A DNA stretch of 62,112 bases, the filler included. It is 15 parts of 15 records of this genome, joined end to end, with 100 filler letters (N's around TTAATTAATTAA, not from the genome) between each part and the next. Parts side by side here need not be neighbours in the genome. Positions count along the whole stretch, not along the records: positions 1 to 4,324 come from SRR15195285_11372; 14 more parts are not named here. One strand, 5' to 3'. A program made the position numbers and the translations under genes. Each line of letters opens with the position of its first letter. The first letter of the stretch is position 1. Of this stretch, positions 1 to 40,351 are shown one piece after another. The notes beneath the pieces were generated by a model that saw only the letters and a list, made by a program, of their open reading frames with translations, had not been told where the DNA came from and ran no database searches.

Positions 1-307
1 TAACAATCATAATAGACAATAGAACAAGTTTCTTGATCAGTGACGAGTGAGTTCTCCATTTTCCAAGCGAATCAAGATGATGAATTGATGAAGCATTATT
101 GATATGTGATAATACCGTACAGCCGTAGATCTTTGGCGACCGACGCCAACGCGATCGAAACGAGGCAGGACTGACGCCAGACCCCGCGCGCGCGCGTGAT
201 TTGTACACACTACCGGTACACTGCGCCGACAACTTACTGCAGCATCAGTGTGTACACACGTACCTGGGCGAGTGCTCCGGCGTGTGCTCCTCGCCCTGGG
301 TGATACG

Positions 308-2261
308 ATGGCCGCGCTCGACGCCGATGCACGTCCAGCAGATGTGAGCGCGGCTGCTGGTGGCTTTGTCGCCGCAAGCACGCTGCTGCCGACATCGTCC
401 AGGGTCGTCGTCACGACGCCGCTACGCCCTTCCGGCGAGGTCGCTGCGACATCCGGCGAGCTGAGCGATGAGCAGCAGCAGCGCATCGCCGCGAACCGGG
501 CGGCCGCCATGGAGCGCCGGCGCCGGCGCCTTGCCGAGAGGGGCGCAGGGTCGCCCAGTAGCCCGACAAAGAAGGCGCGCATAGCGCAGCTGGTGCCGGT
601 GTCGCTTCAGGACCAGGCGGAGCTACACTCGAGCCTCAAGCGGCGCGAGGTTTGCCATCTGCTGCACTTTTGTCTTTGCCAGCTGCGCGCGCAGTGTCAG
701 CGAGTACTAGGCAGAGAATTTCTAGCTGGTTTCGACAAGGAGATAGGACGCATTGACCCGCGTGGCGCCGACGATGTCGTCGCGCAGTCCCAGCTGATGG
801 GGCAGTTCTTCGCCGGCCCCGCGAGAGGCGACAAGGTAACGCGAGCGCGCGGAGCCCCAGGATGTGTACAGTTTGGCTGGTGTAGACTAACTGTCCCGAC
901 GCACGTGCGTGTGTGTGTGCTGGCTTGCAGTGGGTGCCGTGGCACACGGTATTGGGCAGCCACGAGCTGTATCTCCATGCACGCGTGTACTCGCACAATA
1001 ATCTCACGGACGACGACCGCATACTGCTGATGATGGCATTCTCCGGCTCACGAGAGATTCCGCTGTTTGATGCTCTGTACCAGCCCCTACTGTGGCGAGT
1101 CAGCCATGGCGACGAGTCTGCCTACGCTGAGCTCGCAGAGCTGCTGTGGCGTCCTGGCATCGCACTTCGTCGCGGCGGGTCGTGGCACCATCGCTACCGG
1201 CAATACCAGCAATCAGGACAGCGGCTACACACAACCTGCTACCGGTGCTTTTCTCCCGGCGTGTCGCCGACTAGTGGAGAAGAGTTCACGTTTTTCATCG
1301 TCGATCAGACAAAGCGATTCATTGAACTCGGGCACAAACTGCTCGCCCGGATCAACCAGCCCGTTGCCCCATCCCTACTCGAGGTGGAGGCAGTCCTGCA
1401 GACAGTGCGTACTACCACACAGTTCCGCACTACCTTCAGAGAGTGAGCACAGGCGGATCATTGCCCTCAATCTGAACTTGCAAATGACAGGAGCACGGAG
1501 TCGGGCCGACGCTCACCAAAATGTTCGTCGTGAGCACTCATTTGAAGTTTCCGCACCTCGGGCTGGTGAAGGATGATTGTCCAGTTGGTGATGGCGCTAA
1601 GTCTGCATTCAAGTTCTTATACGCACCACAAAGGCAGCATGACGACCCGCAGGAGCTGCTACAGCGGTGGGTGACGCAAGAATATACGCGCATGCGCGCG
1701 CACGCATACACACACAGTGTTCACACAAGCACGCAGTATTTGTCGTGCCACGAGGTGGTCAAGGACGCGGCATTTTGTTTTTGCAGCAAGTGTGCTGCAG
1801 ACCTGACCCGATCTTGCCTTGGTGTTGTGACACGACAGGTTGCACGGGGAGATCTGCGGAACTGTCGGTCAGGCGCTCGAGCCTCGCTTGCTGCCGATGA
1901 TTCGTTGGTGCGCGCAGGCGGTGTCGGTGTGGGCGCAACAGCACAGCATCATGATTCCACCAGCTTCGATCTCGAAGCAGCTCTCAGTTTCGGACCTGCA
2001 AGTCAATTTGTGCGAGTGGAGTAAGTCCAGTGGTCTGCACACTGCGGTTCCACTGCAAGTATCCTCCCCTCACTGCAAGTATCCTCGCCTCTCTACATAC
2101 ATCAATTTGCAGCTCCCAAAGTTTCGAATCTGATAAACAATTGACTGAGAAATCTACTTAATGTCGCGTGCACTGTTTGCATCAATGCAAACGTCGGGGC
2201 AGGGAAGTTTCGCTCTGACCTTGGCCTGGTAGCAACCTTTCGCGCCGACCCTATAGACTGA
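308..2261 (+). CDS. Spliced gene: N-terminal RPA32C-binding motif plus a helical HhH-glycosylase-like domain of the aGPT-Pplase / amino acid:DNA transferase superfamily
   Basis: Spliced by hand: ATG at 308; GT-AG introns 836-930, 1405-1490, 1667-1838 and 2021-2202, plus a possible in-frame intron at ~650-694; stop TGA 2259-2261. The joined protein contains LSDEQQQRIAANRAAAMERRRR, EHGVGPTLTKMF...DCPVGDGAKSAFKFLY and LSVSDLQVNLCEWRKFR. Confidence 0.65.
2051..2091. repeat. 20-bp tandem duplication (CACTGCAAGTATCCTCxCCT x2) inside the last predicted intron
   Basis: Read directly from the sequence. Confidence 0.85.
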
Positions 2262-2366
2262 ATGGAAAGGTAGTGCAGACAGCAAAAAAATCAAGATTCT
2301 GCAGAATAAACTACGAGCTGCATGACATTGCAGGCCTCGGGATGACAGTGCTGTACAGTACATGCG

Positions 2367-3775
2367 CTACTCTGAACTTTTCCCAGCAGCCAAAGCCTTG
2401 CGTCGTTGCCTGCGCGCTTTCTTCTGCGCCGTGCGGCTCATCGGACGCTCCGTTGAGAGACCGTTGCCGGCTTCTGGATCGTCGATGAGTGCCTGCAATC
2501 GCTCTGCCTGTGGCTCTGGCTCAGGATGTCCCGAAGCGCCGGAATCTGATTCCGCGGAGACCGAAGCTATGACCTCCTTACATGCCTGCTTATGAGACTC
2601 CTGGGTCATGGGTCGTAGCTGCTCTACTGGATCAACGCTGCCATCGTGTTGCTCATCCACTGATGCTTCCAGTTGCTCATCTTTGGAGCCTTGCCTGGCA
2701 GCAACAGCTGTACATCGTGCCATCGATTCGTGTGAGGTTGCAGCACCATTGGTGTTGCGCCTCGCTTGCGCCCGGCGCGCTCCCCTGGCTCGTTAAGAAC
2801 GTACAAAGTCAGTTGTTTTCCAGTACAAAGTCAGACTGGACAAGAATGGATTCAAACCAAGGTTCGATGGACAATGTTGATGATTGTAGACATACCGCGA
2901 GAGCTTCGAGCTTTGCTTGACTTGGCGGACGGTCTCAGCATACCTTGTGGGCGTTAGCTCTGCAACTATATCACACGTTCCATTGCCATCTATACTCGAC
3001 TCCACGTTGTCCTGCTCATCTGCCACCTGTTCATGAGGGTCGACCTGTGCCGCGAGATCACCTCGAATGTGACTGCTGGGACTGCCTGTCCGCTTGCGCT
3101 CGCGCTTCTCTCGCAGCAGGCGCTTTTTGAGCTTGCCACTAATCGGCGTTCGCCGTGGGCCATAGAATGCGTTAGATCTCTGTTGTACCCGTGCATAGCC
3201 CACTGGTGGATCTGTATCGTCGCTTTCGGCGTCGCGATCGGCAGTACGGCAAGCCTCGGCCACCATAGCTCGCACAGCCGCGCCCTTGGTTTGCGAGAGC
3301 CGAACATTCTCTAGTTGCGCTCCGGCGCGAACGAGCAGGCTGACTGCAGCAGCATGCCCGTTCCGGCAAGCCTCGATGAGTGGTGTATTTCCACCGCGGT
3401 CGCGTACGCCGACATCTGCGTCGGCGCGGAGGAGACAGCTGATGACTTTCGTGTGGCCTCCAGCTGCAGCAGCGTGTAGGCTACTCCATCCGGCTGTGTT
3501 CGGCAGGTTCACGTCTACGCCACGTTGCAGCGCAGCCTTGACGCCAGTGAGGTCACCCTACAGAGCAGACGGACGTACCAAGCCATCGTGTCAGCCTTCG
3601 ACAGCCTTCTTTTGCACACGATCATTGGCTCAGCTTGGCGAGCATGGATTGCTGGCAGCGCCAGGACGATGAGCGAGGCCGGCTGCTGTCCATCGGGTGG
3701 CCGGGACCGTACCCGGTGCGCGTAGCCCCAAATGTTCCCGGTTTCGACCTCGTACCTTGCACCCGCCTTGGCCAT
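2367..3775 (-). CDS. Ankyrin-repeat protein (spliced; exon borders approximate)
   Basis: Ankyrin consensus in GDLTGVKAALQRGVDVNLPNTAGWSSLHAAAAGGHTKVISCLLRADADVGVRDRGGNTPLIEACRNGHAAAVSLLVRAGA. Probable ATG at 3775 (MAKAGARYEV). Basic C-terminal exon ends at 2367. Confidence 0.8.
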
Positions 3776-4324
3776 TGCAGCAGCAGCTTTAGGCCGATGG
3801 CGACCAACAATTGCAACGACGTGGCGTCGGTCAGCGAGAGGAGCTTGTGCTGCGGCGGCCAGACTCAGACGACGACGGCGCACCAGCGACAAGGCAGCGC
3901 TCTGGAAGGCTTTCCACTGCGGCAGGGGCACAGAGAGAAGGACTAGATGAGAACCACCGTGAGACGCGCCCGCCGGCACTCGCTGTGTGTGTGTGTCGAG
4001 GTGTGGCTCCAGCAGCGAGCGACGGACGGAAGACGGAGCGCCCGAACGAATCCCGTCCGACGACCGGACGGCTCCGTCCGCGCGCGCGGTGCGTGCGCCA
4101 CGCGCGGCCGCGCGCGTGAACTTCGCCAGCTGGCATCGAGCCAGTCGTCGTCAGCTTGGGGCTTGATGAATTTCACGCCGACACGCCCCTCCCTCTCGCT
4201 CTGCGGCTGAGAGCCGACCTATCCTCCAAACCGACATTTATAGTACATTCTACATGTGTACACCGGTCTCTTTACCGTAACCGCACTAATGATTGGAAAC
4301 TATTCCGCCTCCACCTATGTGACC

Positions 4325-4660: not shown

Positions 4661-7096
4661 ATGGCAGCTGTAACGCTGGGCTTGTGGATAGCAGCAGCTG
4701 TTTGCCTCCCGCCCGAGAGTTCCGTGGGCTTGCCACAGCAGCCGCTGTTTTCGTTTGGTCAATTGGGCGTGGGTCCAGCCCCAGCCCCCACGCCAGGTCC
4801 ACGATGTGTTCCTCGGAACGTCACGCTAGACCAGGCGTTGACCATCACGCTCAACGGCTGTGTGCACAGTCATCCGCCCACAAACCCCGTCAACAAGTCG
4901 ATAGACCCCACGGGGTGCTCCTCCACAAACCCTAGCTGGGCACACAATGCGTCCCTGGGGTTCGAAACCTGCGTGGCGACGTGCTGCGCGAACCCCGGCT
5001 GCGCAGGGGCCACGTATGAGCACAACAGCCAATGGGATGGCTTTGGTTACTGTGTCGTGGGGCAGCCGTGTTGCTGGCTCTTCAGATCTTCAGGTGGAAA
5101 ATGGGACCCCCGCTCCAAAGACGAAGGCACGAAGACGGCAATAATTCGTGATAATGTCTCACCCAGCCCACCCTGGCCGCCGACAACGCCGGCAGACCTG
5201 TCCAAGTGGAGCCTTCATACCAACTCGACGGGCGACTCTACCTCATTCGTTTGGCGTGATGGGACTGGGTTGGAAGCTGTGGTATATCAGGTCGACCACA
5301 CGGCTGCGTTGGCCGCCATGGTGAAAGCTCGGTTTGACACTCACCCAGCCAAGCTCCGCACGACGTTGGCTGCAATGGAGTACACGTTGAGCTTCCGGAA
5401 TACTGCAAGCAAGGCGTCGCATCCCTTGTGCGCCGTGAACCCGTTGGATGTCGTATTTGCCCCAGGCGAACGATCAAGCACACTATATCACTTCGAGGGC
5501 GGCGATGACATCCGCAATGCATTCAACGCTCACGTCACCACCTTCAACTCCACGAGTGGCGCACCAGTACAGTTGGTATCGAAGCTTGGGCGGTCTTCAA
5601 ACGGCGTGCTGCCATACTTTGCAATCCAAAGCCCTTCCGGCAAAGTGCTGCTAGTTTCAGTCGGTTGGACCGGGCAATGGGGACTGTCGATCACCTCAAC
5701 GGCTGCTGGGTCGCGCGTGCTGTTGAAGCATCCGGAGTTGTGCGCCGCACTGAATCCACAAGAATCACTGCGTTCATTCAGAGTATTTGCCATGTGGGCT
5801 GACAAGCTCGACGTGCAAGACCTCTTCAACCTGCACCGCCGCTTCATCCTTGGCGCAGGCGCGACGCATGGTGGCAAGCTACTAGCTCCAGTAGCAGGTT
5901 ATCTTGGTGGTGGTGCTGGAAGCATGGGAGGGTGGCAGACGCAGTCAGCATTTCTGTCGCTCCTTAACTCAACAGATGCTGGGGTCGAGGCTTTTTGGCT
6001 GGACGCGGGCTGGTTCAAAGGCGGGTTCCCAAACGGTGTTGGGAACTGGGAGATACCAATCAACCAAACGGTGGATACTCAGAAATGGCCACAAGACACA
6101 CTGCTGCCGATTTCCACCATGGCAAAGAGCATGGGACTGGAATTCATCGTCTGGTTTGAGCCGGAACGAGTGGCTACTGGGACCTACATTGCAAAGGCAC
6201 ACCCAGAGTTTGTCCTTGCTGGTGGAGGGGATGGTCTACTCGATCTAGGCAGCCCCACAGCATGGAGCTTCATCTATGACTATCTGTCGACATGCATCGC
6301 TGACTATCAGATCGACGTACTGAGGATTGATTACAACATTGACCCACTCACGATTTGGCAGGCACATGACAAGCTGATGGGAGGCTCCAATCGCAGCGGG
6401 ACCACCGAGGTCAAGTACATCGAGGGATTGTATAGCCTATGGGACGAGCTGCTTGCCCATCCGAACGGACCTCAGTTCATTGACGACTGTTCGAGCGGAG
6501 GGCGCCGAATCGACTTCGAGACGCTGCACCGATCCATTCCCCTATGGCCAACGGACTTTGATGAAGCCTCAGATCCAGAAGCGTTTCAGTCACATCAGAT
6601 GGGCCTCAGCCAGTTGACTTCCATCTTTGGCGCTGCAGCGCACGGTTTTGATCCTTACAGCTGGCGCAGCGCCGGAATGAATGGCAAAATGCTCTGGTGG
6701 ACCTCTGCGTGGGACGCAGCCATGAAGGTGCCCGCACAGGTGGCGCAGCTCAGGCAGGCAGTTCAAGAGACTGTGATGCTGCGACCGTTCTCGATCTGGG
6801 GCGACTACTACCCACTTACGCCGATCGACGTCCTTGAGCCGTGGGCCGCGTACCAGCTCCACCGCCACACCTCAGCAGACGGCTATATCATGGCCTTCCG
6901 CCGGAGCAAATCAACAAGCGCATCTCTCGCTGTGAGTCTAGTGGACATCGACCCGTTGAAACATTACGAGGTCGAGTGGATGCACGAGTTTTCGGTCAAT
7001 CATACGCAAATCATTGGTGGGAGTGCTTTCGTCAACCTCACGATCACGCTGAAAGCAGTATCGAAGAGCGTGCTGATTATGTACAAGGCCCAATGA
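4661..7096 (+). CDS. Secreted alpha-galactosidase, glycoside hydrolase family 36, with an N-terminal PAN/Apple-like Cys-rich module
   Basis: Signal peptide MAAVTLGLWIAAAVC; CVATCCANPGCAGATY module; GH36 motifs FWLDAGWF, GNWE, FIVWFEPERV, LRIDYNIDP (nucleophile Asp region) and DDCSSGGRRID. No introns. Confidence 0.9.
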   Translation: MAAVTLGLWIAAAVCLPPESSVGLPQQPLFSFGQLGVGPAPAPTPGPRCVPRNVTLDQALTITLNGCVHSHPPTNPVNKSIDPTGCSSTNPSWAHNASLGFETCVATCCANPGCAGATYEHNSQWDGFGYCVVGQPCCWLFRSSGGKWDPRSKDEGTKTAIIRDNVSPSPPWPPTTPADLSKWSLHTNSTGDSTSFVWRDGTGLEAVVYQVDHTAALAAMVKARFDTHPAKLRTTLAAMEYTLSFRNTASKASHPLCAVNPLDVVFAPGERSSTLYHFEGGDDIRNAFNAHVTTFNSTSGAPVQLVSKLGRSSNGVLPYFAIQSPSGKVLLVSVGWTGQWGLSITSTAAGSRVLLKHPELCAALNPQESLRSFRVFAMWADKLDVQDLFNLHRRFILGAGATHGGKLLAPVAGYLGGGAGSMGGWQTQSAFLSLLNSTDAGVEAFWLDAGWFKGGFPNGVGNWEIPINQTVDTQKWPQDTLLPISTMAKSMGLEFIVWFEPERVATGTYIAKAHPEFVLAGGGDGLLDLGSPTAWSFIYDYLSTCIADYQIDVLRIDYNIDPLTIWQAHDKLMGGSNRSGTTEVKYIEGLYSLWDELLAHPNGPQFIDDCSSGGRRIDFETLHRSIPLWPTDFDEASDPEAFQSHQMGLSQLTSIFGAAAHGFDPYSWRSAGMNGKMLWWTSAWDAAMKVPAQVAQLRQAVQETVMLRPFSIWGDYYPLTPIDVLEPWAAYQLHRHTSADGYIMAFRRSKSTSASLAVSLVDIDPLKHYEVEWMHEFSVNHTQIIGGSAFVNLTITLKAVSKSVLIMYKAQ

Positions 7097-7657
7097 CGCA
7101 ATGACCCCGTTGTATCGGTAATGAACGCAATTGTTTTGACGTACACAGGTTCCCATCTTGCGAAATGGCAATACTATCTCACGCACTGCGCCCTCGCCGT
7201 GGTGGTGTCGGGTCGACAGGCGCCTCGCACGAGAGTGTTTTCGCGCAAACATCGCATAAGCGTGTTTCCAAGCGTTGCGGTGATCGCGATCCGTGCAAAG
7301 TGATTGAAACGTTCAAGCACGATGACAAGAACCTTCGGGCGAGCAGCAGCTTCACCGCTGGCTCAACGAGCATGTGGCCCACCTTACCAGTATGCCTGTT
7401 GCCACCGCGACCTTCATTTTCAAGTTCCACTTGCTTGACGTGACCTCGGAGCCGAGTGCGAGTTTTCCTAGCCGCGATGGTGAGACAAAACCCGTGTCCG
7501 TGACACATGCATGACCGACGGCATAATTGTGATTGTGTGATGCCACGCGGATGGTACAGTGCGTTTTCAAGTGTGGTCACTGATCACCACATTTGCTGAA
7601 TAGCCTAGACCACAGCTACACTATCTTGGTACTGTAGCTAACAACCCCGTCTCAGCC

Positions 7658-8729
7658 TCAGGGCCGGCTGGGCACGGCGGTAACCACATGGTGTGGCCGC
7701 GTCCATGCGCTACCGAAACTGTAACTGCCCGAGAGCACTCGGAGTGCAACATAGCTCACACCGTTCCGCTCCTCACGTCCCAAGACGGTCACGCCTGCCA
7801 CAGCCCCGCCGTCCAGTGCCTTGCCACTCTCACTCACTCCACCACTCGTCGACGACGCATCATTGGTCGGAATCAGAACCTTTGCCACAGAATTGCCCGG
7901 AATACTGACGTTGTGTACAAGTCCAGCCCCTCCGTTCTGTTGCACACCTGCCTCATCGAGAATTGCCCAAGAGCTTGATGCTTGGCCATGGAGCGCGGCA
8001 CGTTCCCCCTGGGCCGAGGTTATGTCACCTGCATCGACTCCAGCACGGATCGTTAGGGGCGGGTCCTCGGATGCTTGGACGCGGATCCCTGCGTACGCGA
8101 AAACATCACCACAATTGAGGCGGTCCGTGGTGGTCTCAGAAACTTGCGGTTTCACTGCTCTGGACAGGGAGCGGGTTTGTGTACATCCGGGTTCCAAAAA
8201 TTTCCCACGAACGGGGGTACGTACCTGCAACACCTTCGATGAACCAGAGGCCAATCCCGTTGAAACATCCGTGCATTTTCGACAGATCCTTCTTTGTGAC
8301 GTCCCACTGTTCGGGCCAAGTCGTGTAACCTTCCGCCAAAAAGTGACCGTAACTTGGAAACGTCGTCTGGTTCGCAATCACAAAAGCCAGATCATTCCGC
8401 CCCGACTCCATGAGGTACTTGAAAAGAAAGTAGGTACCCGTCAAACCGGTGTCCAGGTGCCCCTTGTCCGTTACGGTGATTTGGTGAGCGAGATTGCTGA
8501 TGGTTTTGTTTGTAAGATTCGGGGGGACTAGACCCGAGGCAAGAGGCATCAGCGAGTGCGTTTGCAGCATATCAAGATAGACGCCAGTCTGTGTGTCTGC
8601 AAACTGGGCTGTGACTGCCGCTGCCAACTTTGTTGCTGCAGCATGGTACTTCTCGGCCTTGTCCAGATAGCCTAGGATAGATGATATTTCTGCTGTGAGC
8701 TTGGTGATATAGTGGAGGTAGCAGTTGTT
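7658..8729 (-). CDS. Alpha-L-rhamnosidase GH78, C-terminal part (5' truncated by contig end)
   Basis: GHLDTGLTGTYFLF...GRNDLAF...FPSYGHFLAEGYTTWPEQWD...SKMHGCFNG; intron 8089-8224; C-terminal beta-domain VSIPGNSVAKVLIP...SGSYSF. Confidence 0.88.
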
Positions 8730-8779
8730 CTGCATTGCGATGTTAGAGAGTTCGTTAGTCGCACAGCACGCGGCGCGCG

Positions 8780-8867
8780 CGAGAGAAGGAGAGAGAGAGA
8801 GGGACGGAGGGAGGAAGGCAGGGAGGGCGGCGCGGGGGGGGGAGGAGAGAGAGAGAGAGAGAGAGAG
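8780..8867. repeat. (GA)n / purine-rich microsatellite at the contig end
   Basis: GAGAGAGA runs and G/A-rich sequence up to the linker. Confidence 0.85.
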
Positions 8868-9396
8868 NNNNNNNNNNNNNNNNNNNNNNNNNNNNNNNNN
8901 NNNNNNNNNNNTTAATTAATTAANNNNNNNNNNNNNNNNNNNNNNNNNNNNNNNNNNNNNNNNNNNNATCCCAGTACTGATTCGGCAACCGCCAAATTTG
9001 GCCGGGGCGCCTGTAGGACCCCCTTTGGGCGACTGGGTCCGCCTGGGTCAGGATTCAATCCACAGCCGCGGTCAGAACCACAATCTTCGATGAGGAGTAG
9101 GAATTCCTAATGTCAATGCTGGGAAGTGGTATCGAAACAAACAGTGTCTCGCGGCGGTCAGCGGAGTGTGCTGAATCTATCAGTGAGTGAGTTCGGAACC
9201 ACCGGCGGAAACGCTCCGAATTCGCAGGCCGGTGGTACCGCGGCCGGCAGACGCACACGCACGCAGAGAGAGGAGCGCCGCTCGGCGTGGGTATCAGACA
9301 CTGTGAGGACGCGCTGCGAAACAGTACAGGATCTCAACACTGGAGCCGGTTGCAGAGCAGACGAACAGGGGCGGTCACGCAGAGCGCAGCGTTGCG

Positions 9397-26054: not shown

Positions 26055-27835
26055 TCACGAATCGTCCTGAAGTTCCGCCGATCTAGGTGCATACAAGTCG
26101 GCTCGGGATTTGGCTATCAGAAATGCCGTGTTGCTGTAATCCTCTAGCATGGGATTATACCCTGTCCGCGTCTCCGTGCGTCTCGGATTCACATTCCGCG
26201 AAAGAAACACATCTGAGGACATCACCATCGCGCGCGCGCTCGGACCCATTACCTCGGAGTAAGCCGATGCTAACCATCGAAAGTCCGTGGCAAAGAAAAT
26301 GTCTGCGTTGCCCGCATTCTCCAAGTAGCTCCCATGGTCAACTTTCCCACCCGCGGACGAGACGATTGGAGCGTTCAATGCAGTGTCCCGCTGCCCTGAT
26401 ATCTGAGAGGGCCAAGGTAGATGGTCGAAATCAGCCGCCACCAGGACATGGTTAGGTACTGCGAGCTTCAGTGACTCGAGTAGCTGCAGGGAGCCCGTAG
26501 GTATGAAGCGCGGTGTCGGCACCACACCATGCGTGCGCGTCATCCACTCCTCGCCACGCGTACGTAAGACACCGAGGACGCCACGCTGTCATGCCCGACA
26601 GGATGGCATACACATGTCCACACCCAGACCCAGACTTCAGCAGTAGCACTTCAATGAGCATGGCGCGATGTCGGAATGTCACACGGTACGAACACATCTC
26701 CAAACACCAAGGTGAGTTCACTAAATATGCGAGGGTGTCCAACGCACCAACAAAGATCCCAGGATACCTTCGCCTGACGCTCGACCTGGCGTGTAGTCTG
26801 GATGCCGGACCACCTGCTGTACGGAGTCGTCGACCTCACACTGCTGGTGCATACGGTCTATCTCGAGTGCACGGCACAGCAGTGAATCACTTAAAGGCTC
26901 AGCCAGCTCTACAGGTACCCGAGTCTTTTCATCTACCCCTATGACTATTTGATGCGCCTCAATCCCATCGGTCTGTCTTCTCCCGGTCGCGTGGCTGAAT
27001 CTGACCTTGTCGTGTGGCAAGTTGTCAAGCACTTCCATCAAGATGACATAGCACAGCTCCTCGCCACCCACTCCTGCTGCAGTAGCCCAGCAGGAGCGCG
27101 TGTCGGTGATATCCCCTGCAACCACGGCAAAATTTCGGTGCCCCGCCTGCTCTACTGTCTCGGTTGCGCGCTGGCCCATGGCTGCCGAGAGCTCCACGTC
27201 AGTGTAGCTGGCTGCGGCGTACACGTCGGGCGCTTGATCGCGCAGATAATCCAGAACGTGACGAGCGTGTGTACCAGCACCGCCCCCAGCTTCGACAATG
27301 CGTAGTGTTGGTGCTGTGGTGGGGGAGCAAGCCGTCGCGCGGCGGAAGTCAGTCAGAATCCATTGTGCAACAGCGTATGAGTACCACGGCTGCGAAACAG
27401 CACAGTCGCACACGCTGAGACGACCAGCAGCGGCAACGAACTGGTTGCACATATCGAGAGAGCAATGGGACGCACCGCGAAGATTTCGACCGGTGTGAGC
27501 CATGCGTCATCCTCGGCGGCATACAGCTCCCCCAGCTTCTTGGTGTACTCGGACTTGCCGCGCAGCTTCGTGAAGTCCAACGGTTCCACGGGAGCGTGCA
27601 AGCAGGTAGTGGTGGCGAAATAGCCGGACTGAGAGTCGTACAGCGCCCGCCATATGAAGTCCCGCACCAGCTCTCGCGATGGTTGCGTGCTGCTGCCAGA
27701 ATGGGTCGCAACCGAGCATGCTGGGCAGAACCCTTGCCATGGCCGGCGTGCCAATGGCTGGTGCAGCGCCCTGTTCGCGACTGCGGATCGTCGCAGGGCG
27801 CTGACTCCTCTGCACTGGCGAGCCGCCAGGTGCAT
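26055..27835 (-). CDS. Mitochondrial SAM-dependent methyltransferase, MidA/NDUFAF7 family
   Basis: Arg-rich presequence; LVRDFIWRALYDSQSGYF, WLTPVEIF, IVEAGGGAGT, EVLDNLPHD, FIPTG, AADFDHLP and ADIFFATDF across at least 3 exons. Confidence 0.88.
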
Positions 27836-37865: not shown

Positions 37866-38663
37866 CCTGACCGATGTTTTTTTCCGTACTTTGGTCCAAG
37901 TTGGGCGAGGTTGCTGTTGTGGACCTTAAGCTGCCACAACACTAGAACGACCGTGTGCGTGGCGGCGTGCTTCCTCGCGTGCTCCTGCGTGGCCCACTGT
38001 TCTGGGCCCAGCTGGGTGCCAGGGCCGTAGTGCCACTGGTACCTGTACCTACTAGTAGGTAGTGTCGTACACCAACAACACTGAGTCTGTAGAATGATGT
38101 AGTGGTTGCACGCGCTCTGACCGACGGCACGCGCTTCCTGTACTCGACTCGGAATTTACTGTCCACTCGCGCGCGATGGTGGTGCTCGCTCTCGCGTCGC
38201 TTGCTTGTGTGTGCCTGAAAAATTCTAAAATGGACGCCGTGCTCACCCGCCGGTGAATGCGTCGCGAATTACATTATACATTGTATTGTATTCATCCGGT
38301 ATCCGATGGACAGTACTACCTGGTAGTATGAATGTACTAGTAGGTCACCATTGATAGCCCGGCCACTGCTACAAACTCGTAATCATAAAATTGGCCAAAC
38401 CCAACAAACCGCACCTCTACGCGATGCAGAAAGTTGCTGAAATTCACGTGGTACGGTCCATTTTTGCCACTGTACATGTACCGTGAAAATAGCTGAAAAC
38501 CCCCATTTCCCGGCGTGACGCCAGTCATTTACATGGATTTGTGCGGTGAGCTCTACGCACCGCNNNNNNNNNNNNNNNNNNNNNNNNNNNNNNNNNNNNN
38601 NNNNNNNTTAATTAATTAANNNNNNNNNNNNNNNNNNNNNNNNNNNNNNNNNNNNNNNNNNNN

Positions 38664-40351
38664 AGGCGTCCAGTCGAGAGCATTCGCCTGGGCAAGAGCA
38701 GTGCCCGGACCCGCTGTGGGAGATCGAGGTCCAGCGGGCGTTCGAGAGCGCGCTCCGGACACTCGGCAAGGAAGCAAAGGGAGACGCGAAGTGGGCCGCG
38801 GTGTCGGCGCAGCTGGCGAGGGCAGGAGTCGACAGGTCGCCGGGGGCGTGCAAGGCGTACTTCAAGCAGTGTAAGAGGCACCGTCAGAGCAATCAGCCCG
38901 GTGGAGGCGAGGACCGTCGGTCCCGAAGCACGCGGAAGTGGACGAAGGTCAAGCGCGAGATCCGGTCGGAGCTGCCGGACCAGTGGGCGTGGCAGAGCCG
39001 CTCGTACCAGAGCAGCCTGCAGCTTCCGAGCACGCTGGACAACATGGAGCGCGTTCACGCCAACGACGTGAGCGTGCAAGAGTTCATCCGGCGCTGGGAA
39101 GCGCCATGCACGCCTGTGGTGATCGATGGCTTGGCTGATGAACAGATGCAGAAGTGGCAGCCGATGCTGCTGCTGCATCGGTTTGCAAACGTGAAGCTCA
39201 AGTGCGGCGACGACGACGAAGGGCGCGCAGTACGGATCAAGATGCGGCACTATCGGCGTTATGTTCAGACTGAGGCGAAGGCGGACGACTCACCCCTCTA
39301 CGTTTTTGATTCGGCCTTCGGTGAGAGAGCACCGGCGATGCTGCAGGACTACGAGGTGCCAGCGTACTTCCGGGAGGACCTCTTCCAGCTTGTTGGGAGC
39401 CGCCGCCCACCATTCCGTTGGATCATCCTTGGGCCGCGCTTTTCAGGGTCTGGCATCCATATCGATCCGCTGGGCACTTCTGCATGGAACATGTTGATGT
39501 GTGGCCACAAGCGATGGGTTCTGTTCACGCCAGACGTCTCGGCAGACGTGGTCAAGCCGCCTCGTGGCATGGGCCGAGAGGCAGTCACCTGGTTCGCCAA
39601 GATGCTCCCGCAACTGAAGCGTCAAGGTGTCCCGTGTATTGACTTCGTACAGAAGCCGGGAGAGACTATCTTCGTGCCGAGTGGTTGGTGGCACGTTATT
39701 CTCAACCTTGACTTCACCGTCGCGGTCACGCAGAACTTCGCTTCCGCAGCCAACTTCAAGCAAGTGTGGGCGGCCACTGCCAAGGGGCGGCCACGTTTGG
39801 CAAGCTTCTGGCTGAGTGCACTGGAGCAGCGAGGGCACACAGCTCTCGTCGCCCAGGCGCATGAACTGCTGCGCCTGTGGGATCCGGAAGGGTTTGAGCG
39901 CTTGCCGCCACAGCCGACACATGCAGGTGGGAAACTGGTGCTCAGTCGGCGGCGTGACGGGCTCCGTGACCTGATGCTCGACGTACGGTGGAAACGGCGC
40001 ACCAGGCGAGAGGAGCGACAACGGCAGCGAGAACGTGACGAATGGATCGGATCGTGTTGGTGTTGGCCAAGTTGGGCGTCCAGTGCTCAGGCGGGCTGGG
40101 AGGAGAAAGACTATTGGGTCTGCGATGATGATCACTCAACAACATCGTCCGACTCGTCGACGTCGGACGAGGAGGAGCAACGACAACAGCAAGGTGAGCA
40201 ACACATTGAGACGGAATGGGGGCCGCGGGCCAGTCAAGGCCTGGCGGCGGCGGCGGCTGATGGCGGCTTGGCGTACGGCTCGATCGTTGTTGCAAAAGCT
40301 GCGCCGGCTGGAGGTGAAAGCGAAGGCAGGGGCGGCCTCACTGTAGTTTAA
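38664..40351 (+). CDS. JMJD6: JMJD6/PSR-type JmjC hydroxylase with an N-terminal Myb/SANT-like domain (5' truncated)
   Basis: KLKCGDDDEGRAVRIKM, DDSPLYVFDSAF, YFREDLF, RRPPFRW, SGSGIHIDPLGTSAWN (HxD) and ETIFVPSGWWHVILNL. The frame is open upstream: WEIEVQRAFESAL...KWAAVSAQL...RSPGACKAYF. Confidence 0.9.

Follow-up and report, generated by a model that had tools for sequence, protein, structure and literature searches.

A predicted intron-bearing gene family of marine protists with remote homology to phage HMUDK_hel proteins and its own active-site signature

Post-replicative thymidine hypermodification shields phage DNA against the endonuclease defences of the host, and the titles, abstracts and passages that cover it describe it for phages only. 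Within the same scope, the literature on aGPT-Pplase, HMUDK and thymidine hypermodification describes no eukaryotic homologues of the enzymes involved, and elaborated 5-substituted pyrimidines of eukaryotes appear in a few cases: base J, the 5-hydroxymethyluracil (5hmU) of dinoflagellates and the 5gmC of Chlamydomonas. Iyer et al. 2013 (NAR 41:7635) reportedly described a dispersal of such systems to some algae and fungi, and that paper may already list eukaryotic homologues of these enzymes. Here we describe a gene at positions 308-2261 (+ strand) of a DNA stretch of 62,112 nucleotides, filler included, which joins 15 parts of 15 records, begins with record SRR15195285_11372 (positions 1 to 4,324) and is called the window below. 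The gene is predicted to be an intact five-exon nuclear gene for a protein of 472 amino acids, and this protein shows remote homology to the HMUDK_hel / aGPT-Pplase superfamily of phages.

In phage M6, the relevant genes run in the order ADDT (gp51), a pyridoxal-phosphate enzyme, a radical S-adenosylmethionine enzyme, a 187-amino-acid Walker-A kinase, a 323-amino-acid HMUDK_hel protein and a thymidylate-synthase-like gene. Because the Walker-A kinase is an open reading frame (ORF) of its own, the "helical domain" protein is a separate gene without a P-loop; we take it to be gp55, from its position after the kinase. Kinase and stand-alone protein lie in L001:16686-18232; proteins of the stand-alone type go in some databases under the name "nucleotide kinase domain-containing". 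In the passages on glycinylation in Lee et al. 2021 (PMC8989533), gp54 and gp51 alone glycinylate 5hmU DNA in vitro and gp55 can be omitted. The same source describes a conserved Cys and a proximal Glu as essential in the clade 2 enzymes, and reports that exchanging Cys for Ala abolishes the activity of M6 gp51 and of ViI gp247 (PMC8989533). For PaMx11 gp46, Cys247 is proposed to attack C6, and the structure shows a Ca2+ at O4 of the flipped-out thymine, bound by Glu243 and Thr244 (PMC11472151). From their equal length and homology, we take Cys247 of M6 gp51 to correspond to Cys247 of PaMx11 gp46.

At the locus described here, the pieces of one reading frame are scattered over three frames. 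A first reading of the DNA from its sequence alone (the sequence-only reading) had proposed a spliced gene hidden behind four GT-AG introns. Removal of the four introns leaves an open coding sequence of 1419 nucleotides and 472 codons, and the four junctions restore collinearity with the relatives. Against a profile of 55 relatives built without any window sequence, the joined protein matches as a single domain with an E-value of 3.9e-109. Taken singly, the exons fall on successive parts of the same profile: exon 1 on positions 12-82 (E 5.6e-13), exon 2 on 83-215 (E 2.7e-43), exon 3 on 234-293 (E 2.3e-24) and exon 4 on 305-352 (E 3.3e-10). Exon 2 alone, used as a query, finds four proteins, two of which, P0006 (443 amino acids) and P0008 (478 amino acids), are unbroken across all four junction positions. 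Relatives are encoded at 40 metagenome loci, many of them as a single ORF over the whole profile and others split by introns. By these comparisons we judge the joined gene model to be far beyond chance.

All four introns start with GT and end with CAG, and removing any one of them shifts the frame because no intron length is a multiple of three. Exon 1 (308-835, + strand) starts 307 nucleotides into the window at ATG 308, the first in-frame ATG after a stop before position 200; it spans 176 codons, ends in phase 0 and encodes a low-complexity N-terminus followed by the initial helices of the conserved core (HLLHFCLCQLRAQC...). Intron 1 (836-930, +; 95 nucleotides, GTAACG...CAG) falls where the relatives run on unbroken (...ARGDK|WVPWH...). 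Exon 2 (931-1404, +; 158 codons) contains columns that the family keeps nearly invariant (W-x-P-x-H...E, R...L-x-T and R) and is followed by intron 2 (1405-1490, +; 86 nucleotides, GTGCGT...CAG), through which the frame would meet a stop after 13 codons. Exon 3 (1491-1666, +; phase 2 end) holds GVGPTLTKMF (1497-1526), which resembles a helix-hairpin-helix (HhH) hairpin, and CPVGDGA (1578-1598). Intron 3 (1667-1838, +; 172 nucleotides, GTGGGT...CAG) splits an Arg codon (CG|G) at a point where the relatives again continue unbroken. The C-terminal helix D-L-Q-V-N-L-C-E-W (1993-2019; Cys codon 2011-2013) lies in exon 4 (1839-2020, +; phase 1 end). Read-through of intron 4 (2021-2202, +; 182 nucleotides, GTAAGT...CAG) meets a stop after 37 codons, and exon 5 (2203-2261, +; stop TGA 2259-2261) completes the motif with a split Arg codon (A|GG) and KF, where relatives have LCEWRAF or LCEWRKF. 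The C-terminal strings quoted in the sequence-only reading, GVGPTLTKMF, DCPVGDGAKSAFKFL and LSVSDLQVNLCEWRKF, are all present in the joined protein; the spacer from GVGPTLTKMF to DCPVGDGA, given there as 15 residues, counts 16. A public prokaryote-style call of 248 amino acids, P0038 (window 284-1030), has an N-terminal motif stretch identical to exon 1. Judged by its length, we infer that P0038 reads on into intron 1, in which case public data carry a wrong model of the gene.

Among 1.84 billion representative proteins, a profile search finds the family of this gene with 205, 132 and 44 representatives at E-values of at most 1e-3, 1e-10 and 1e-30, drawn from marine metagenomes, metatranscriptomes, MMETSP and EukProt. 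The named protein collection holds 21 members, none with a precomputed Pfam domain; the three with an organism name are all "hypothetical protein" entries of Aureococcus anophagefferens. The family is thus one of marine protists whose organism-named members come from the pelagophyte Aureococcus, and by these searches it appears to be unannotated and to lack a Pfam model matching above threshold. A domestication from phage, which the sequence-only reading had suggested, finds no backing in the viral and prokaryote collections: scans with one or two peptide patterns gave six pattern matches and no relatives among IMG/VR viral contigs, and four pattern matches and no relatives among prokaryote species genomes, and this absence is weak evidence because only one or two patterns were used.

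Counted over the 55 family members, conservation concentrates in three regions. The nearly invariant columns of exon 2 are W-x-P-x-H and a Glu, followed further on by Arg, Thr and Arg. Exon 3 contributes G-x-T-x-x-K (G340 in 53/55, T342 in 55/55, K345 in 54/55) and C-x-V-G-x-G-A (C365 in 53/55; G368, G370 and A371 each in 54/55), and the C-terminal Q-V-x-L-C-E-W-R-x-F has Q463, V464, L466 and E468 in 55/55 and C467 in 54/55. The window protein retains every nearly invariant column of the family and no exon contains a stop. The Asp of CPVGDGA, in contrast, is retained by 21/55 members only.

The N-terminal ~100 residues of the protein are disordered and basic, and the remaining ~370 are predicted to form an all-helical, two-lobed domain like that of the HhH DNA glycosylases. 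Within the N-terminal part, residues 48-78 (449-541, +; SDEQQQRIAANRAAAMERRRRRL) have TIPIN 191-221 as their best PDB match, at a weak phmmer E-value of 0.18, and a counterpart of this motif is found in the relative P0054. TIPIN 191-221 is presumably the RPA32-binding motif of the RPA32C-binding, SMARCAL1/UNG2/TIPIN type, so that the N-terminal motif may bind RPA. The N-terminal extensions of some longer relatives give sub-threshold MBD matches (E 0.014 and 0.019) and an Agenet match (E 3.3e-4); these MBD- or Agenet-like segments lie in P0101 and P0138, at their N-termini, and in P0012 (189-219). A GDSL-lipase domain occurs in the relative P0068 and an IBR domain in one other member.

Profile comparison ties the family to HMUDK_hel (PF18723, "5-hmdU DNA kinase, helical domain"), which is the best match by Pfam, hhalign, Foldseek against BFVD and the ESM Atlas. 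The Pfam model was matched by 3/55 relatives at E-values of at most 0.01 (best E 5.2e-5). With hhalign, the family aligns to the single M6 HMUDK_hel protein at E 0.0082 (200 columns, probability 4.8%), to an alignment of 16 M6-type HMUDK_hel sequences at E 0.0029 (194 columns, probability 10.7%) and to a canonical eukaryotic HMUDK_hel encoded on a metagenome contig, L004, at E 1.8e-5 (113 columns, probability 77.9%). Against the M6-type alignment, G-x-G-P, G-x-G-A and LCE line up in register, the exon 3 motifs being placed over GWGPF and AGPGA: the family's G-x-G-P-T, V-G-x-G-A and D-x-Q-V-x-LCE-x-x-K-F stand over GWGPF, AGPGAxxG and D-x-E-H-x-LCE-x-x-KY, with Phe replaced by Thr in the first motif and Glu by Gln four residues before the Cys. 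The motifs GxGxF, xGPGAxxG and DxxxxLCExxKY, which the sequence-only reading had listed for the superfamily, are indeed those of the M6 HMUDK_hel protein. Of 30 ESM Atlas neighbours, 28 are HMUDK_hel clusters, at a score of 0.96. Pfam, hhalign, BFVD and the ESM Atlas, together with the fold comparison below, therefore support the reading that the protein is eukaryotic, bears introns and is a divergent member of the aGPT-Pplase superfamily with an HhH-glycosylase-like fold.

The family shares with the phage HMUDK_hel proteins the all-helical HhH-glycosylase-like fold and, with the two replacements just given, the motif order of G-x-G-P / G-x-T, then (A/V)-G-x-G-A, then D-x-x-x-x-L-C-E-x-x-K-[YF]. 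It differs from them in that the window protein and its close relatives stay below the Pfam gathering threshold of 25 bits, in ~60 extra N-terminal core residues, in its own invariant W-x-P-x-H and C-x-V-G columns, in the Gln that stands for the phage Glu at position -4, and in residing in nuclear, intron-bearing genomes rather than in kinase-containing phage clusters.

The characterised amino acid:DNA transferases (AADT; aGPT-Pplase clade 2, PF18724: M6 gp51, ViI gp247 and PaMx11 gp46/PUGT, 8z2m) are more distant, although the sequence-only reading had likened the protein to them. The Pfam ADDT model gives no match in the exons or three close relatives at E-values up to 10, or in the 55 members at up to 0.01, while M6 gp51, as a control, scores 159.6 bits; by hhalign, the family reaches M6 gp51 only at E 0.06 over 47 columns (probability 0.9%). 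Because the signal towards the transferase branch is this faint, HMUDK_hel (a "clade 1"-type family) is the nearest known family. The protist protein is also ~180 residues longer than the transferases and has no known 5-HMUDK kinase partner.

The fold points the same way. An AlphaFold2 model of the relative P0008, computed from 149 aligned sequences, has a mean predicted local distance difference test (pLDDT) score of 83.5 and a predicted template modelling score of 0.79; 337 residues reach a pLDDT of at least 90, about 77 N-terminal residues are disordered and the all-helical core spans ~95-478. VIA-align compared this model with 48,161 representative chains, and the best 14 all belong to the HhH superfamily, judged from entry titles, at Z values of 6.1-9.5; because common arrangement can by itself give helical proteins Z values below ~13, this evidence rests on the uniformity of the top 14 and not on single scores. 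Cytochrome P450s first appear at rank 15. The PaMx11 gp46 5-PmdU glycinyltransferase (8z2m) aligns with Z 8.7 and a root-mean-square deviation (rmsd) of 4.3 over 218/287 residues, and the aligned part (model 111-478, chain 8-258) extends as far as the C-terminal helix. With Foldseek, the best three BFVD rows are two HMUDK_hel proteins and one "Pplase1" (E 2.6e-3 to 1.1e-2, probability 1.00, target TM 0.45-0.47), and eight of the top 15 carry one of the names HMUDK_hel, Pplase1, 5-hmdU DNA kinase or AADT.

At the putative active site, hhalign sets the Cys of the C-terminal helix over the LCE Cys of HMUDK_hel and, at the low confidence of the gp51 alignment (E 0.06), over Cys247 of M6 gp51. This match to the transferase nucleophile is retained in 54/55 members. 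The position four residues before it is Glu in the transferases and the phage HMUDK_hel proteins and Gln in 55/55 family members, as well as in the canonical eukaryotic HMUDK_hel of L004. The residue after the Cys is Glu in 55/55, likewise in HMUDK_hel, and Lys in M6 gp51. On alignment, the family is thus predicted to be an active-site variant of its own, and its residue pattern would fit Cys chemistry at pyrimidine C5/C6 better than base excision.

L004, a compact 10.1-kb stretch from a metagenome contig of 23.8 kb, has a windowed GC content of 53-76%; its ORFs are unbroken as read and include tubulin-tyrosine-ligase (TTL) and UBX genes. A 408-amino-acid gene at 6435-7661 passes the Pfam HMUDK_hel threshold (99.7 bits, E 2.4e-28), and directly downstream on the same strand, 147 nucleotides apart, 7809-9083 encodes a 424-amino-acid family member; the two share the C-terminal motif (BLASTP E 9e-5). 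A local profile hidden Markov model scan over the window and the 40 loci finds no canonical HMUDK_hel other than the gene at 6435-7661, most loci being ~2 kb long and without flank. Because L004, a eukaryote-like contig, holds both in tandem, eukaryotes carry both clades. Paralogous pairs are described for phages in PMC8989533; the tandem seems to echo them and is a possible two-gene module.

We see an even chance that the protein is an enzyme of nuclear DNA which flips out a 5-substituted pyrimidine, attacks C6 with its Cys and transfers or removes a group at the C5 substituent. Nuclear DNA would be bound through the HhH-like hairpin (G-x-T-x-x-K), and the base flipped out would be 5hmU, 5-hydroxymethylcytosine (5hmC) or an activated derivative. 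Attack of the conserved Cys on C6 would then lead to chemistry at the C5 substituent, either a group transfer or the removal of a group via an exocyclic methylene. The invariant Gln, at the position of the phage metal-binding Glu, would recognise the base directly at its O4/N4 edge. A broader scheme is unlikely: some marine protists, pelagophytes and others, would run a nuclear pathway of their own for hypermodifying or editing pyrimidines, in which a canonical HMUDK_hel protein and its Gln-Cys-Glu paralogue, still in tandem on one compact contig, write or rewrite an undetected 5-substituted thymine or cytosine. The RPA-binding-type motif would couple such a pathway to replication, and the MBD- or Agenet-like modules would tie it to chromatin in some lineages.

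Several observations weigh against an enzyme of this kind or against the gene behind it. The characterised branch of the superfamily is that of the transferases and not HMUDK_hel, the nearest family, whose presumed M6 member gp55 was dispensable in vitro, and the positions of the transferase Glu243 and Thr244 are Gln and Val, each in 55/55 members. Pfam and PHROG give no match to the window exons or to P0006, P0007 and P0008 even at E-values up to 10, and only one of ten divergent members matched HMUDK_hel, at E 0.12 (P0143, 12.2 bits). The hhalign probabilities against phage sequences are low, and the strong value appears to come only from the eukaryotic bridge sequence. Structurally, Foldseek returned no row at E-values up to 0.001 against either PDB or BFVD, the VIA-align scores lie in the range that common helical arrangement can reach, and human QNG1 ties with the transferase in Z. 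The sequence-only reading had seen neither a partner kinase nor a 5hmU-forming enzyme on the contig: TET/JBP, dUMP hydroxymethylase or thymidylate-synthase-like proteins and a P-loop 5-HMUDK are absent among the 20 longest window ORFs.

The RNA evidence for the splice junctions, which the sequence-only reading had looked to for confirmation, adds to this side of the balance. Twelve contig pieces from four RNA-labelled marine runs (151-306 nucleotides, depth 2.5-19) contain no spliced joint, and introns 2 and 4 are present unspliced, intron 2 in one contig that spans it (X2 record 6, 1394-1544) and intron 4 in X3 records 10 and 11, X2 record 8 and X1 record 4. Introns 1 and 3 lie outside the cover of these contigs, which leaves 200-509, 816-1052 and 1545-1863 uncovered. 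Since the pieces are short, have low depth and could stem from pre-mRNA or from DNA carried over, they leave the joints neither confirmed nor refuted. In one contig, X3 record 9 (depth 3.2), the 16 letters before position 1053, inside exon 2, mismatch the window; a chimera, a variant or an alternative joint may account for this single case.

The alternative that survives best, improbable as we hold it to be, is that the protein makes no base at all and binds and flips a modified pyrimidine as a partner or reader, on behalf of another enzyme or for chromatin marking. The nearest family by every method is HMUDK_hel and not AADT, the dispensability of the presumed gp55 would suit an accessory role, the metal-binding Glu of the transferases is absent, and the sub-threshold MBD and Agenet matches give some relatives a reader-like N-terminal extension. 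A Cys in 54/55 and a Glu in 55/55 members, within a motif common to the catalytic helix of the transferases, are more typical of catalysis.

A smaller probability still goes to an HhH DNA glycosylase or repair enzyme that excises from nuclear DNA a pyrimidine that is damaged or modified, such as 5hmU or 5-formyluracil, and is perhaps recruited to forks through the weak TIPIN-like motif (E 0.18). Glycosylases share the two-lobed helical fold and the hairpin-like G-x-G/T...K; OGG, EndoIII, NTHL1, AGOG, AlkA, Mag1 and MagIII align with the P0008 model at Z 6.1-7.6 over 175-213 residues, and in Foldseek against PDB, headed by a terpene synthase, glycosylases including 3-methyladenine glycosylases appear at a probability of 0.12-0.23. 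HhH-GPD glycosylases have a catalytic Asp ~20 residues after the HhH hairpin, and the Asp of CPVGDGA sits, we assume, roughly at that position; its retention in 21/55 members only, with the family's invariant Cys-Glu pair in its stead, speaks against excision. There is, moreover, no Pfam HhH-GPD match at E-values up to 10 in the exons or close relatives, phmmer and hmmsearch against PDB sequences gave chance-level rows only, and the affinity in sequence is towards HMUDK_hel and not towards glycosylases (EndoIII/NTHL1, OGG/AGOG, AlkA/Mag1/MagIII). A canonical Nth, MutY or AlkA orthologue is ruled out by the missing sequence match and the unconserved Asp. A kinase is ruled out as well, there being no P-loop and the Walker-A kinase of M6 being the separate 187-amino-acid ORF.

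It is very improbable that the protein acts on free nucleotides or nucleosides, as a salvage-type hydrolase like the queuosine-5'-monophosphate glycosylase QNG1 (DUF2419). Human QNG1 (7ugk) is the top VIA-align row (Z 9.5, rmsd 5.7, 240 residues), a second QNG1-type protein (7u07) follows at Z 8.4, and the superfamily fold is shared. QNG1 nevertheless lies within one Z unit of the DNA transferase with a worse rmsd (5.7 against 4.3; 5.7-6.0 for the two QNG1-type entries), no sequence relationship or Q-salvage Pfam match is detected at E-values up to 10, its substrate is a free nucleotide, HMUDK_hel is the neighbour in sequence, in the language model and among viral folds alike, and the basic N-termini and reader-like extensions suggest chromatin. 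Least credible of all is a gene-model artefact or pseudogene whose pieces stay unjoined in vivo and yield no functional protein, since for all the unspliced introns 2 and 4, the missing joints and a public collection that holds only P0038, an exon 1 call into intron 1, the four junctions restore collinearity, the nearly invariant residues are kept, the exons are free of stops and the RNA contigs are short and shallow.

The superfamily and its phage roles are already known, and what is new is a protist family with its own active-site signature and domain fusions. This family is conserved, intron-bearing and nuclear across marine protists and keeps the Cys that corresponds to the transferase nucleophile within its own active-site variant; also new are its tandem arrangement with a canonical HMUDK_hel gene, seen on one contig, and the sub-threshold chromatin-reader-like extensions of some members. 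These features hint at a new kind of chemical modification that some marine protists carry out on their own DNA. For ecologically important algae, Aureococcus among them, the gene offers a handle for seeking unidentified DNA bases, and the protist family could help to reveal the role of the HMUDK_hel branch. Should it turn out to act directly on 5hmU or 5hmC, with no need of a kinase, the enzyme could serve as a labelling tool for those bases.

The 20 longest ORFs of the window encode LRR, melibiase, FMN dehydrogenase, PI3/4-kinase, JmjC, WD40, protein kinase, histidine phosphatase and methyltransferase proteins. A JmjC/cupin hydroxylase ORF (38612-40351, +) and a Methyltransf_28 ORF (26721-27506, -) are ordinary eukaryotic genes, neither of TET/JBP type by Pfam. 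A convergent ankyrin-repeat gene (2793-3557, -; Ank_2, E 8.5e-14) has its 3' end ~530 nucleotides from the stop of the gene described here.

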